Counted from the stretch's first letter, positions 4,557 through 17,119 are shown. The stretch is 64,000 nucleotides of DNA from an uncultured Planctomycetia bacterium (GCA_964460615.1 CAYWPX010000005.1:9524-73523); one strand, 5' to 3'. A program made the numbers and translations. The notes: a model not told the origin generated them from the letters alone.

Positions 4557-5948
4557 TTATTTCCAATATTCTGGATTTAGTGTAGTAAAATCAAATTTTC
4601 CCATTACTTCGGCTTCAGGGGTCATGGGACCATAGTTGACGGACTTCATGTCGTCAGTTATTGAAATAAGCCGTGGAGCCCTTCGGCTAACACTTATTCC
4701 TATAAGCCCCGCTTCAATAATATCACTGGTTGTACTTTTCGCTATTACGAGCCGGTCTCCATCAATAGCTTCGGGATCAATGGTAACGGTTGCGGTATAC
4801 CCACCCATCTTTTTGGCAAGCGTTAATTCTGTGAAATGATAATCAGGGTTTGTGCCATAGCTTTCCACTGACTTTAGATTAAAATCTTTAATCCAAATAA
4901 AAAGTATATCGGTACATTTTCCGGGAGGAAGGAAAGAATGCCTGTCCATTTCATAGTTGCGTCCGGCCATCATCGAATGTGTGAGACTAAAAGGAGCTTT
5001 TTTATCGAGGATCCTTATAATAATATTATCTAGTTTGCGGTTACCATCATATAAATGCAAAACTTTACCTACCGTGGGATTATTATTGCTCTGGCTATTT
5101 GAAATAAACCAGCTGGGGCATTGCCCGAGAGGCTCGTCATAAGCGCTCAACTCATAACCTTTGGCAAAAATACGGTAATAGCCTTGATTTATTATATTAA
5201 TAGTAAAATACCCACCGCCATCTGTCAAAGCTGAATAGGTATGACCATTTCTGATATTTACCGCGAATACCATGGATTTTTTTTGTGAGTTGGATGTTTC
5301 GACTTTACCAGAGATCGTATGAACAGTTTCAGGAGCCCACATGCCACGTAAATCCGCTCGATCCTGTTCGCTAAAGGCAAGGAATTCGTCATCGCTCCAT
5401 GCCTTAGTACCGCAGAGCATTATGGCAGAAGTCGAAGCAGCATGCTCAAGACCCAATGCATGCCCTATCTCATGGATCATAGTATTGTAGGACATTGCAT
5501 AATAACCGTATTCGGTATTTAAAATTACTAAACCTTTTTGATAATCATGGGGGATAGCGCCTGAGTAACTTCCTCCGCCAGAAACCGATTTCCCAGGAAC
5601 AGTTGCCCCTGCCAGCACAACATAGATACAACCATCATTAGGAACTTCACTGATATTACCGTAATTGAAATTTTCAAGACCCTTGAAGACAAACTTTAGC
5701 CCTGTCTCAGGCACCGAACCCCATAATTCAAAAGCCTTTTTTATTTTTTCTACAACAGGTTCGGGCGTGGAAATATTTTTATTTTGTCTTTTATCAAATA
5801 GATTCGAGGATATCTTGTAGTTAATTATCCTAGCGGATTTTGATTGGCCGGAAGGTTTATCGGCATAGGAAGTTACATCTATCAAAAAAAGAAACATTAA
5901 ACTTAAAAGAAAAGCAGTATACCTACTGATCGCATAATCTGATCTCAT
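4557..5948 (-). CDS. Secreted metzincin-type zinc metalloprotease
   Basis: Extended zinc-binding motif HEIGHALGLEH (HExxHxxGxxH) with a downstream Met-turn candidate. N-terminal signal/TM. C-terminal beta-rich region. Confidence 0.7.
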   Translation of the reverse strand: MRSDYAISRYTAFLLSLMFLFLIDVTSYADKPSGQSKSARIINYKISSNLFDKRQNKNISTPEPVVEKIKKAFELWGSVPETGLKFVFKGLENFNYGNISEVPNDGCIYVVLAGATVPGKSVSGGGSYSGAIPHDYQKGLVILNTEYGYYAMSYNTMIHEIGHALGLEHAASTSAIMLCGTKAWSDDEFLAFSEQDRADLRGMWAPETVHTISGKVETSNSQKKSMVFAVNIRNGHTYSALTDGGGYFTINIINQGYYRIFAKGYELSAYDEPLGQCPSWFISNSQSNNNPTVGKVLHLYDGNRKLDNIIIRILDKKAPFSLTHSMMAGRNYEMDRHSFLPPGKCTDILFIWIKDFNLKSVESYGTNPDYHFTELTLAKKMGGYTATVTIDPEAIDGDRLVIAKSTTSDIIEAGLIGISVSRRAPRLISITDDMKSVNYGPMTPEAEVMGKFDFTTLNPEYWK

Positions 5949-6649: not shown

Positions 6650-6827
6650 TCAGTGGTTATGAGTTATGAGTTGGGAGTAAGAGATTGCTCAAGGGTCTAG
6701 GGGATAGGGTCTAGGGAAGAGAAAAAACGCTTCAGGTTACAAGCTTTTCCTCAGTTTAAACTTCGGGCTACGCAGGTTACAAGAAGAAGGTGTAGAAGAA
6801 CACAAGAACACATGTCACAGGTAAATA
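6650..6827. repeat. Mosaic intergenic repeat, composite part: (GTTATGA)x2, (GGGTCTAGG)x2, GCTTCAGGTTACAAG, CACAAGAACACATGTCACAGG modules
   Basis: Short tandem heptamer/nonamer iterations. Modules shared with the family-A and family-B copies elsewhere. Confidence 0.6.
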
Positions 6828-6946
6828 AGCTCATAGCTCATGGCTCATAGAAAAAGATAAGAGAAGCTTCAGGCCGCAAGCCACAGGCTACAGGTAAAAG
6901 ATTGAACCAAAAACGCCGTACCCCGTACGCCGTACTAAAAAAATAG
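6828..6946. repeat. Intergenic repeat family A, copy 1: (AGCTCAT)x3 - GCTTCAGGCCGCAAG - (CCACAGG,CTACAGG) - (CCGTACN)x3
   Basis: ~90% identical to 16946-17067. Clear 7-nt periodicity. Confidence 0.8.
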
Positions 6947-9418: not shown

Positions 9419-9448
9419 GAAATAGTTCATAGACATTGGAGCGCCAAG

Positions 9449-9582
9449 ACACAACGTCACAAGTTTAAAGAAGAAGAATTTGCTTGTGCTCTTGTGTCAT
9501 TGTGCTCATGTGTCAATAAATGCTGGTAACTGGTGCTCTGGCGATTGGTGCACTGGTAACAGCAATACCGGTACCCTGATGA
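9449..9582. repeat. Intergenic repeat family B, diverged copy 3
   Basis: Shares GTCACAAGTTTAAAG...GCTTGTGCTCTTGTG...ACAGCAATACCGGTACCCTG with the copies at 10984 and 13153. Confidence 0.6.
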
Positions 9583-10968: not shown

Positions 10969-10983
10969 AATTACAGCCTCAGG

Positions 10984-11103
10984 CCTGCCAGCAAAGCTGG
11001 GGAGGTTACAAGAAGAAAGGGCAAAAGAGCACAAGAACACACGTCACCAGTTTAAAGCTTTTGCTGGTGCTCTGGTGACAGCAATACCGGTACTCTGGTG
11101 ATC
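10984..11103. repeat. Intergenic repeat family B, copy 1 (CCAGCAAAGCTGG palindrome; GTCACCAG-TTTAAAGCTTTTG-CTGGTGCTCTGGTGAC nested hairpin)
   Basis: Direct repeat of 13153-13309 (~80% identity). Nested inverted repeats read directly. Confidence 0.8.
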
Positions 11104-11130
11104 ATTGTACTCTTCTAGTTGCAAATTAAC

Positions 11131-11230
11131 TGATAGCTGAAACCTGCCTGCCAGCAGGCAGGGCTGATGGCTGATAGCTCATAGTAAAAAAACAAATAGC
11201 GATTAGCCAATTGGGCGAATAGGCGATTAG
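11131..11230. repeat. Intergenic module: CTGATAGCTGA - perfect palindrome CCTGCCTGCCAGCAGGCAGG - GCTGATGGCTGATAGCTCATAG - GCGATTAG x2 around the CCAATTGG palindrome
   Basis: Read directly. Shares AGCTGAT-type heptamers with the family-A tail. Confidence 0.6.
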
Positions 11231-12551: not shown

Positions 12552-13121
12552 ATGAAAAAAATCTTTACTTTATTAGCAGTGGCAATTTTTACTTTTGGGT
12601 GCGCCAGGGTAAGCTTGCAGGCACCCAAAGAACCCATAAAACTCGACATCTCCATGCGCCTTGATATCTACCAGCATGTCGAAAAGGATATCGACGCAAT
12701 TGAAGATTTGGTCTCCGGAGGAGGAGCAGCCGATAAGGTTGCAGCTCCGGATAAACAAAGTTTTCTGAACTCTTTTGTTTCAATCGCTTACGCAGAAGAT
12801 GGATTAAGCCCTGAGGTAGAAGAAGCCGCCTTAAGACGTAAATCAAGGCTTGGAGAGTTACGCTCATTAGAAACAAGTGGAGCTATTGGTGAAAGCAATA
12901 TGGGTTTAGTTGAGATAAGAGACTCTTCAAAAGCTGAAGGTTCTATTAATGAACTTATTAGAATGGAAAATAGCGACCGAATGATAATATACCGGTCTGT
13001 TGCTGAAAAAAACGGCACCACAGTTGAAGATGTGCAAAAAATATACGGTAAAAGACTCCAGAACGACGCACCTAGCGGAACCCCGATTGAAACCGATTCA
13101 GGGGAATGGAGCGTGAAATAA
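12552..13121 (+). CDS. YdbL-like lipoprotein (DUF1318)
   Basis: AAGGAG RBS and lipobox TFGCA. C-terminal region (IIYRSVAEKNGTTVEDVQKIYGKRL...GEW) resembles the YdbL/DUF1318 family, which in E. coli follows ydbH (AsmA-like). Confidence 0.5.
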   Translation: MKKIFTLLAVAIFTFGCARVSLQAPKEPIKLDISMRLDIYQHVEKDIDAIEDLVSGGGAADKVAAPDKQSFLNSFVSIAYAEDGLSPEVEEAALRRKSRLGELRSLETSGAIGESNMGLVEIRDSSKAEGSINELIRMENSDRMIIYRSVAEKNGTTVEDVQKIYGKRLQNDAPSGTPIETDSGEWSVK

Positions 13122-13152
13122 CGCCACATGCCACAAGCGCCAGGTCACAGGT

Positions 13153-13309
13153 CTGCCAGCAAAGCTGGCGAGGTTACAAGAAAAAAGTACGAAGGAACAC
13201 AAGAGCACACGTTACCAGTTTAAAGCTTTTACTTGTGTTCTTGTGACTTATGCTCTGGCAACAGCAATACTTGTGCTCTGGAAACATCAATACTTGTACT
13301 CTGGTGATC
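13153..13309. repeat. Intergenic repeat family B, copy 2 (internal duplication of the ACAGCAATAC-TTGTRCTCTGG unit)
   Basis: Alignment by eye with 10984-11103. Confidence 0.8.
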
Positions 13310-13362
13310 TGTGTAAGCCTGATTGAAGAGTACGATTGACAGAACAAAAAAAGGAGGAAATA

Positions 13363-13575
13363 ATGGCAAAATACGCACTATCAAGAAGAAAAGCGATCAG
13401 CCGCGCTCAGATGGGCAAAAATAATTCCTTTTATGGCAGAAAACATTCCAAAGAAACTCTTAAAAAGCTTTCCGCCGCCACCAAAGGAAAAAATAATCCC
13501 ATGTTCGGCAAACACCATTCCGTTGCGGCAAAACGAAAAATGAGACTTGCCAGACTACGAACAATTGGGAAATAG
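13363..13575 (+). CDS. Stand-alone protein with two NUMOD3 DNA-binding repeats (70 aa)
   Basis: Two tandem motifs, GKNNSFYGRKHSKETLKKLSAATKG and GKNNPMFGKHHSVAAKRKM, matching the NUMOD3 module of GIY-YIG/HNH homing endonucleases. No nuclease domain. AGGAGG RBS puts the start at 13363. Confidence 0.55.
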   Translation: MAKYALSRRKAISRAQMGKNNSFYGRKHSKETLKKLSAATKGKNNPMFGKHHSVAAKRKMRLARLRTIGK

Positions 13576-13611: not shown

Positions 13612-14622
13612 ATGGTTAAAACTAAGATAATAGCTACTCTCGGGCCGGCGTCATCTCGTGAAACAACGATAAGAAAAATGATGCTTGCCGGGATGGATGT
13701 TGTTAGATTTAATTTTTCTCACGCTAACACGGATGAACTACTGAGCAGGATCAGCATTATCAATAAACTGAACTCAAAATACCACAGGCATATTAGATTC
13801 CTCGGCGACTTACAAGGCCATCGCATACGAATAGGCTCTCTTCATAAGCCAATCCTTCTTATTAAACACAGAATCATATATCTTACTCAAAAAAATATTA
13901 TTGGAACCGATATTTTGGTCCCTTTTGATTATAAAGGACCTCTTGATAGTATTAAAACTGGCCATCACATTTTCATTGATGACGGGAATATCTCTCTTCA
14001 GGTAACAGGCCGGTCAAAAGATAAATTAAAAACAAAGGTAATTGTCGGAGGCCTGCTCAAAGAACATAAAGGCGTAAATATCCCTGATGCAAAACTCAAA
14101 TTCGACGGACTAAACATGAAAGATATCATTGATGCTGGGTTTTGTCAGGCCAATGGCGTAGATTATGTTGCGCAGTCATTTGTGCGGACAAAAAATGACA
14201 TTGACAGAGTTAGGGCGCTTTTTAATGAAGACTCTGGCATTAAAATAATTGCTAAGATCGAAAATAGAGACGGGATCAATAATATAGACAGCATTATTAA
14301 GGCATCCGACGGGATAATGATAGCGAGAGGGGATATGGGGGTATCAATACCTATATATGAAATCCCTATAATTCAAAAAATGATCATCAAAAAATGTAAT
14401 AAGTCGGGCAAATTTGTTATCACTGCCACCCAAATGCTCGAAAGCATGACCGAAAATCTTCGCCCTACACGTGCCGAGGTAACAGATGTAGCCAATGCCA
14501 TAATAGATGGCGCTGACTTTGTTATGCTTTCAGGAGAATCTGCCGTTGGTAAATATCCGTCCGAAACAATCACGATGATGAACAATATAATAAAATATAC
14601 TGAAAAATTTTTAAAACAATAG
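13612..14622 (+). CDS. Pyruvate kinase lacking the C-terminal (allosteric) domain
   Basis: Matches the PK barrel and B domain ([54 protein letters not shown]). Ends where the A domain ends, at 336 aa. Confidence 0.7.
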
Positions 14623-16940: not shown

Positions 16941-16945
16941 AACTT

Positions 16946-17097
16946 AGCTCATGGCTCATGGCTCATAGAAAAAGATAGGAGAAGCTTCAGGCCGCAAGTC
17001 ACAGGCTACAGGTAAAAGATTGGACCAAAAACGCCGTACTCCGTACGCCGTACTAAAAGAAAAATAGCTGATGGCTGAAAGCTGATAGCTGGTAGCT
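16946..17097. repeat. Intergenic repeat family A, copy 2, with a heptamer tail (AGCTGAT,GGCTGAA,AGCTGAT,AGCTGGT)
   Basis: Near-identical to 6828-6946. The tail module recurs at 3728, 9683 and 11133-11175. Confidence 0.8.
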
Positions 17098-17119
17098 AAT
17101 ACAGTCAACGCATAATATT

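Follow-up and report, generated by a model that had tools for sequence, protein, structure and literature searches.

A known DNA-binding module in a new form: free-standing, hyper-basic NUMOD3 proteins conserved in Candidatus Omnitrophota

The NUMOD3 motif is usually encountered within homing endonucleases, and its occurrence as the sole domain of a small protein raises the question of whether such a protein is the debris of an endonuclease or a gene in its own right. The case that we consider here is a coding sequence for 70 aa at 13363..13575 (+) in a 64-kb stretch of genomic DNA (the window, by which we mean the whole 64,000 nucleotides that were analysed). The first-pass annotation called it an orphan made only of two NUMOD3 repeats and left the choice between the relic of a decayed endonuclease, hinting at past intron or phage activity, and a domesticated small DNA-binding protein. 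The reading frame itself is just as then described, with an ATG, 70 codons and a TAG in the ORF list, and its strong ribosome-binding site is also real: direct reading of the sequence places the Shine-Dalgarno motif AAGGAGG at 13351..13357 (+), 5 nt before the ATG. We discarded an alternative TTG start at 13336, which would give a protein of 79 aa, as no ribosome-binding site precedes it and the N-termini of the relatives do not agree with it. The gene is present in 1 copy within the window.

The coding assignment is carried by the ORF list, the Pfam match and the composition of the product. The protein matches NUMOD3 (PF07460) in two stretches, with E=2.1e-25 and 88.8 bits against a gathering score of 20.4; the strongest stretch covers residues 25-61, and no Pfam family other than NUMOD3 was matched. 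The corresponding matches in PHROGs, NCBIfam and PADLOC concern only the DNA-binding part of homing-endonuclease models. As for TIGR01453 (“group I intron endonuclease”), the protein scores 36.8 bits, below the cut-off of 56.05, and covers only positions 103-157 of the 215 in the model. Its composition is extreme, with 21 K+R, 1 D+E and a pI of about 12.

The anatomy of the protein was taken from an alignment of 72 relatives (A3) together with an AlphaFold2 model built on that alignment (mean pLDDT 92.9, pTM 0.51), in which helices are predicted at residues 6-15, 30-40 and 54-69. The description of the protein as consisting of NUMOD3 only is upheld; the count of two is not, since the model and the alignment agree on three helix units. 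Unit 1 (residues 1-26, 13363..13440, +) has a degenerate predicted helix at residues 6-15 (13378-13407) and the linker GKNNSFYGR at residues 18-26 (13414-13440). Unit 2 (residues 27-50, 13441..13512, +) opens with a KHS cap, continues with the helix of residues 30-40 (13450-13482) and closes with the linker GKNNPMFGK at residues 42-50 (13486-13512). Unit 3 (residues 51-70, 13513..13572, +) has an HHS cap and a long, basic C-terminal helix predicted at residues 54-69 (13522-13569), and is without a trailing linker. The repetition is visible even at the DNA level, 13414-13449 and 13486-13521 being 75% identical at a spacing of 72 nt (24 codons). In the window copy unit 1 reads K-Y-A-L-S-R-R-K-A-I-S, as against a family consensus of K-H-S-x-A-T-K-R-K-I-S; the H-S cap, intact in most relatives, has been lost here, and it is for this reason that only two repeats had been counted.

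Throughout the family there are two near-invariant linkers, G-K-N-N-S-F-Y-G-[KR]-x-H and G-K-N-N-P-M-[FY]-G-[KR]-x-H. The invariant columns among the 72 members are G18, N21, G25, G42, N45, P46, G49 and H52, and conservation exceeds 90% at Y24 (92%), H28, M47 and K59 (96%). The helix positions are variable and rich in K, R, S, T and A, the surface of helix 2 being the most variable of all; helix 1 is fairly well conserved (A-T-K-R-K-I-S), and the tail of unit 3 is R/K-rich in all 72 members. [quoted passage not shown] Foldseek superimposes the model on 1i3j with 2.2 A over 33 columns and 45% identity, at an E of 5.8 that is not significant by itself.

The protein is far from being the orphan that it had seemed. 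A single-sequence word-index search recovered only 3 homologues of 71-73 aa, and a search with a five-sequence profile recovered 396 proteins; among the best 120 of these 396 matches, about 80 stand free and have NUMOD3 as their sole domain, a length of 56-86 aa, 43-70% identity to the window protein and the same three-unit layout. An all-library HMMER search gave 24,454 matches, the best 150 of which are almost all multi-repeat endonucleases, because the scores of the repeats add up; the sole useful one among them was P0129 (75 aa). All 72 of the aligned members have a NUMOD3 match and no catalytic domain, and they are alike in having equivalent starts and stops and lengths of 63-86 aa. Those homologues among the approximately 80 that bear NCBI names are entered as [quoted passage not shown], and a cluster look-up of the family found no taxonomic names beyond Omnitrophota.

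To obtain a broader view of the distribution, one genome per GTDB species was scanned with two exact peptide patterns, giving at least 54 loci. At least 18 species-level Omnitrophota assemblies have one NUMOD3 locus each, situated among ordinary housekeeping genes. The ORFs at these loci are 64-84 aa long, as are those of syntenic relatives that carry coarse “Planctomycetales” labels and those of two named Candidatus Aceula species (phylum Omnitrophota). The other bacterial and archaeal loci in the scan are nearly all GIY-YIG or HNH endonucleases of about 200-340 aa, or lie within DnaE-like ORFs of about 1,440 aa. Among the best 80 viral loci from IMG/VR, nearly all are endonucleases of 200-300 aa, the few short ORFs inspected run off contig ends, and there is no stand-alone small basic NUMOD3 member. 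Outside the family, then, NUMOD3 was found in these scans almost only in homing endonucleases, in keeping with the background supplied by the first-pass annotation.

Some of the loci merit separate mention. Three archaeal ORFs of 119-136 aa contain NUMOD3 only: L033 4902-5309 and L050 4881-5240 (Thaumarchaeota MAG), and L036 1178-1588 (Methanomicrobiales MAG). They have 4-5 NUMOD3-like repeats in which the acidic residues are kept (HSEETKRKMSE type), and may be either a separate class of stand-alone NUMOD3 proteins or fragments of endonucleases. The DnaE-like ORFs with an internal NUMOD3 match (about 1,435-1,442 aa: L053 1066-5373, L059 2679-7007 and L063 2682-6986) have an N-terminus that resembles a PHP domain, and presumably carry an intein-borne homing endonuclease. 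In an Omnitrophota MAG (JBFZAD010000105.1, L055 4998-5225), the family member looks frameshifted after about residue 43, tblastn splitting it into two frames at 5120-5129; this could be either an assembly error or a pseudogene, i.e. a case of loss.

Among the named records examined the family is characteristic of Candidatus Omnitrophota. The window itself is, judging by what lies close to the gene, of the same phylum; the evidence is in the relatives of the neighbouring pyruvate kinase and in a nearby DUF1559 protein, of a type that we take to be typical of the PVC group. The family could be confined to some Omnitrophota lineages, since the scan relied on two exact patterns and none of 80 pyruvate kinase loci (see below) had the gene nearby. 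It is present in the databases under an automatic name and appears to be undescribed: among the papers listed by a full-text search on NUMOD3, none deals with Omnitrophota or with a stand-alone bacterial NUMOD3 protein, and those found to join Omnitrophota with nucleoid-associated proteins deal with histones and IHF-like proteins only.

The family is vertically inherited, single-copy and under purifying selection. Where dS is measurable, dN/dS is 0.069 (L021/L022), 0.082 (L025/L038) and 0.175 (L034/L038); in the remaining pairs dS is saturated, with the amino-acid identity still at about 55-60%. Despite these saturated synonymous sites, positional orthologues are found in three synteny groups. 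In the first, which comprises six species-level genomes, the gene order is aconitase – NUMOD3 – three small genes – leuC-like – leuD – chorismate synthase (aroC). The other two unite L020 with L027, and L006 with L035, each pair with a context of its own. A GGAGG-type Shine-Dalgarno sequence precedes about 16 of the 21 members inspected, in loci that range from 35 to 53% GC. There is no conserved functional partner gene across the contexts compared, the immediate neighbours differing from one synteny group to another. A minority of the contexts have translation-related neighbours: an RF-1-domain protein in L006 and probably in L035, a TypA-like gene near the member in L018 and an RNA-methyltransferase-like gene near that in L028 (the last two names were read from the sequence and are not profile matches).

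Two further contexts are of interest in themselves. In two contigs the member P0001 is preceded, at a distance of 78 nt, by a same-strand gene for an 84-aa protein with a SWIB domain (PF02201; L004 3369-3623 and L005 337-591). This domain is of a chromatin-remodelling type, and its adjacency may be fortuitous or may hint at a common role related to DNA. The member P0207 has a giant called gene on either side, one of 7,531 and the other of 11,889 residues (L010 1-1150 and 6586-12216, JGI Ga0451520_0000078; also L011).

With respect to composition, the family is clearly set apart from the NUMOD3 of mobile elements. Its members average 31.5% K+R and 2.3% D+E, with a mean net charge of +0.29 per residue, as compared with 23.4% K+R, 11.7% D+E and a net +0.12 per residue for 152 NUMOD3 segments from viral endonucleases (Mann-Whitney p about 4e-33).

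Could the gene nevertheless be a pseudogene fragment, the decaying remainder of a GIY-YIG/HNH homing endonuclease that was brought in by a former mobile intron or phage insertion? The near-restriction of NUMOD3 elsewhere to homing endonucleases, the degenerate unit 1 of the window copy and the dispersed repeat element directly upstream of the gene would all be in keeping with such an origin. We consider it extremely improbable that the gene is of this kind, as selection, positional orthology, uniform gene structure and the lack of any debris all argue against it. The dN/dS values of 0.07-0.18 are those of a conserved gene and, together with the uniform architecture of the 72 aligned homologues (alike in start, end and length, at 63-86 aa), they exclude a series of independent neutral truncations. 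Orthologues hold their positions in genomes whose dS is saturated, and a strong Shine-Dalgarno sequence precedes most of the members inspected.

The flanks of the gene are equally clean. No GIY-YIG or HNH catalytic domain was detected by Pfam in the 70-aa protein, in the 72 relatives or in the flanking frames; four reading frames over 13106-13384 gave no Pfam match at E up to 10, and the remnants for which a search had been proposed were found neither in the 240-nt upstream spacer nor in the 36-nt downstream one. Nor is there room for a remnant, since an intact DUF1318 gene lies 240 nt upstream and an intact pyruvate kinase gene 36 nt downstream. Neither a group I intron nor any other Rfam match turned up in the window, and there is no mobile-element, intron, intein or phage gene near the NUMOD3 gene; the surrounding 15 kb is of a housekeeping character (glucoamylase-like, patatin, AsmA-like, SBF transporter, PNPOx, NMO, cyclophilin, CoaX and GroEL). 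The location in introns, inteins or phages and the patchy or multi-copy spread that go with homing endonucleases are likewise missing, each Omnitrophota assembly having one locus and synteny being conserved. The notion of a relic that hints at past intron or phage activity must consequently be given up, and what we have is, with high probability, a selected and functional stand-alone nucleic-acid-binding protein. It is the other original suggestion, that of a domesticated small DNA-binding protein, which agrees with a conserved, selected family of extreme basicity; DNA binding would follow from its homology to I-TevI, I-HmuI and I-BmoI.

The immediate surroundings of the gene in the window were also examined for clues. 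The pyruvate kinase gene at 13612..14622 (+) begins 36 nt past the NUMOD3 stop codon and encodes a barrel-only protein of 336 aa (Pfam PK E=3.6e-108; TIGR01064 above its cut-off), without a PK_C domain. There is no terminator-like site on the + strand between the two genes, and they are probably co-transcribed. This pyruvate kinase had been regarded as truncated, which is not the case: its 120 closest relatives measure 333-360 aa, nearly all of the named ones being from Omnitrophota, and 80 metagenomic pyk loci with 63-74% identity align over residues 1-336, so that the barrel-only 336-aa protein is the normal form of this lineage. In none of these 80 loci (0/80) does a NUMOD3 ORF lie within 4 kb of pyk, and the adjacency would thus be peculiar to this genome. 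The same loci share almost none of the other genes of the window, and gene order therefore seems to be poorly conserved in the phylum.

The best site in a promoter scan, a near-consensus sigma-70-like one (13336-13364: TTGACA, a 17 nt spacer and AATAAT, with 11/12 matches), overlaps the ribosome-binding site and the start codon of the NUMOD3 gene. Because of the overlap with the start codon it cannot serve this ORF; were it active, its transcripts would begin within the coding sequence and might serve pyk.

On the upstream side there is a dispersed intergenic repeat element (13130..13310, with no strand assigned) that has hairpin arms at 13198-13212 and 13231-13245 and a 23-nt tandem of 2.6 copies at 13246-13304. 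The presence of a family-B repeat ahead of the gene had been correctly recognized, and the element is real; it is not, however, tied to the NUMOD3 gene. Related copies at about 9440-9580 and 10969-11100 stand upstream of unrelated genes, the element has no Rfam match and its fold is unexceptional (z=-1.4), and we rejected it on these grounds as a gene-specific operator or RNA. More generally, the window has two families of dispersed intergenic repeats of about 110-180 nt, one at 6820-6940 and 16945-17060 and the other at 9440-9580, 10969-11100 and 13130-13310. They consist of short reiterated words (GCTCATG, CCGTAC[TC], ATAGCTG and CTTGTGCTCTGG) and hairpins, lie between genes of the same strand and have no Rfam match at the gathering score; runs of heptamers occur at 17064-17101 and 11130-11180. 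These families could be REP/MITE-like elements, terminators or small RNAs.

If the protein is functional, how might it act? In I-TevI, I-HmuI and I-BmoI, NUMOD3 is the alpha-helical module that binds the minor groove (PMC3664794). Two such helices of I-HmuI are intercalated there, at steps with a roll of +20 and +37 degrees, and the groove is widened and underwound (PMC2175346). From the sequences we infer that the family binds DNA, in a minor-groove mode and with low sequence specificity, and plays an architectural role. The reading that we prefer, and which seems to us somewhat more probable than its competitors taken together, is that of a functional, vertically inherited mini-protein of three NUMOD3 units that the host has retained and that acts as a small architectural DNA-binding protein of the nucleoid type. 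The module would have become detached from the nuclease and helix-turn-helix domains and then been kept by the host. Each unit would set a short amphipathic helix rich in K, R, S and T in or along the minor groove, and the invariant G-K-N-N-x-x-[FY]-G-[KR]-x-H linkers would take the chain over the backbone, from one site to the following one. A protein of 70 residues might thus extend along roughly two turns of DNA, its net charge of about +20 neutralising phosphates, and three bound units would widen or bend the groove. What such a protein would read is the shape and charge of DNA and not one specific sequence. This type of readout is favoured because it is mainly the linkers that are conserved, because the helix surfaces differ among members and because there is no conserved neighbouring target gene; a low sequence specificity is likely because the acidic residues are almost gone and the helix faces vary between species.

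Several features bear on such a role. With 70 aa, a pI of about 12 and 21 K+R against 1 D+E, the protein is as small and strongly basic as nucleoid proteins are. In the exact-pattern scan the family extends over at least 18 species-level Omnitrophota assemblies, in several unrelated contexts and with dN/dS of 0.07-0.18. The strong Shine-Dalgarno sites may be an indirect hint of high abundance, and the bending reported for the NUMOD3 helices of I-HmuI (PMC2175346) an indirect hint, by analogy, that DNA is bent here as well. That the role is global or architectural, as opposed to site-specific, is a suggestion that we make tentatively. More doubtful is its boldest form, in which the Omnitrophota would carry a phylum-specific hyper-basic nucleoid protein of about 73 residues and of selfish-element origin, coating and bending DNA with three minor-groove helices and without a globular fold. 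By analogy with the endonucleases, in which NUMOD3 works together with other DNA-binding modules, three NUMOD3 units by themselves may be weak binders or depend on a partner. Moreover, some Omnitrophota metagenomes encode IHF-like proteins and histones (PMC11390915), and for that reason a further nucleoid protein is not obviously needed.

The main rival to an architectural role is a site-specific transcriptional regulator, whose three units would recognise a defined sequence of about 15-20 bp and control a small regulon, by repression or activation. A model for this exists, as the DNA-binding domain of I-TevI doubles as an autorepressor of its own promoter (PMC3384342), and the NUMOD3 gene is small and single-copy like those of many regulators. 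Its linkers are well conserved, as is helix 1, which would also fit a conserved specific target. On the other hand, the surface of helix 2 is highly variable among orthologues, and a net charge of +20 with near-zero acidic residues would be unusual for a specific regulator. In I-HmuI, most of the base-specific contacts come from the helix-turn-helix domain (PMC2175346), which is absent here. The repeat-rich 240-nt region upstream of the gene in the window might have been taken for an operator, but the repeat element precedes unrelated genes too; and no neighbouring target gene is conserved, the contexts differing between synteny groups. All in all, we think that a site-specific regulator is rather unlikely.

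Both of the remaining alternatives, an RNA/ribosome-associated role and one against selfish elements, have little to support them. A small basic protein that binds rRNA or other structured RNA, perhaps on the ribosome, would account for the 31% K+R, the pI of 12, the size of about 70 aa and the extended helices without a core, all of which recall small ribosomal proteins, and a few contexts (L006, probably L035; L018 and L028) do lie near translation genes. These neighbours are nevertheless a minority and are not conserved, no ribosomal-protein family is matched, and what structures and biochemistry have taught about NUMOD3 relates solely to the minor groove of B-form DNA (PMC3664794, PMC2175346); an RNA-binding function is thus improbable. 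Even less probable, in our opinion, is a part in selfish-element biology or defence, either in occupying, and so shielding, a conserved target site of an endonuclease or as the DNA-targeting subunit of a nuclease encoded elsewhere. The origin of the protein in an endonuclease targeting module and its partial match to homing-endonuclease models listed in PADLOC would speak for this, but those matches span only the DNA-binding segment of the models, a nuclease or defence gene is never consistently adjacent, and the gene is single-copy and vertically inherited in housekeeping contexts.

Whatever its precise role, the DNA-binding module of this protein is a familiar one, and what is new is its form: free-standing, hyper-basic and conserved in a lineage. 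Studies of NUMOD3 have so far dealt with it solely as an accessory spacer of mobile endonucleases. In the present family it constitutes by itself a conserved gene of the host, and this in a large phylum of which only uncultured or enriched material is known. For annotation it follows that short NUMOD3-only ORFs of Omnitrophota should be neither named “group I intron endonuclease” nor taken as evidence of mobile introns. If the protein does bind and bend DNA, it would be a clean bacterial case of a DNA-binding module of a selfish element recruited by the host. It would also be a candidate lineage-specific nucleoid protein in the Omnitrophota, whose cells are very small and among which giant genes were seen in L010. 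With about 24 residues per unit, it would offer a minimal natural scaffold for tracking the DNA minor groove. Were the nucleoid reading true, it would represent a class of bacterial nucleoid-associated proteins unrelated to HU, IHF, H-NS, Fis and histones.

It is perhaps useful to compare the architectural protein that we propose with the systems that it most resembles. HU, IHF and the chlamydial Hc1, a histone-like protein of the PVC group, are small, very basic and often single-copy, and HU and IHF bend DNA via the minor groove. The NUMOD3 family is like them in its size, its strong basicity, its housekeeping contexts and, probably, its minor-groove bending. HU and IHF are, however, dimeric and have beta-arms, whereas the present protein looks like a monomeric helical repeat, and there is no relationship in sequence or fold. 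The STPR domain binds in the major groove of DNA. In Bombyx FMBP-1 (PDB 5d23) it places tandem 23-residue helical repeats on DNA, but the identity to the window protein is 8%, with a score too weak for homology. With the NUMOD3 of homing endonucleases, in contrast, the likeness is direct: the PF07460 motif, the unit of a helix and an extended linker and the tandem array are all shared, I-BmoI having three predicted units (PMC3664794), and the family profile aligns to the minor-groove helix segment of I-TevI in its DNA complex (1i3j). What distinguishes the family from these enzymes is that it has no GIY-YIG/HNH nuclease, zinc finger or helix-turn-helix, that it is not found in an intron, intein or phage, and that it is single-copy, vertically inherited and far more basic.

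The re-use of DNA-binding surfaces of endonucleases for host regulation also has parallels in the LAGLIDADG-derived regulator WhiA and in the I-TevI autorepressor (PMC3384342). WhiA keeps the whole of an inactivated LAGLIDADG scaffold along with a helix-turn-helix, whereas here there is only a short repeat module. By analogy, the nearest functional precedent is a family of Paulinella chromatophore proteins, the DB-sCTPs, which are stand-alone small DNA-binding proteins with the helix-turn-helix fold of I-TevI and I-HmuI (PMC10319021). Theirs is a C-terminal helix-turn-helix that is globular, binds in the major groove and exists in many copies in a eukaryotic host, and the two families have no sequence relationship. 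In both of them, nevertheless, a DNA-binding module of a phage-type endonuclease has been detached and kept by the host as a free-standing protein.
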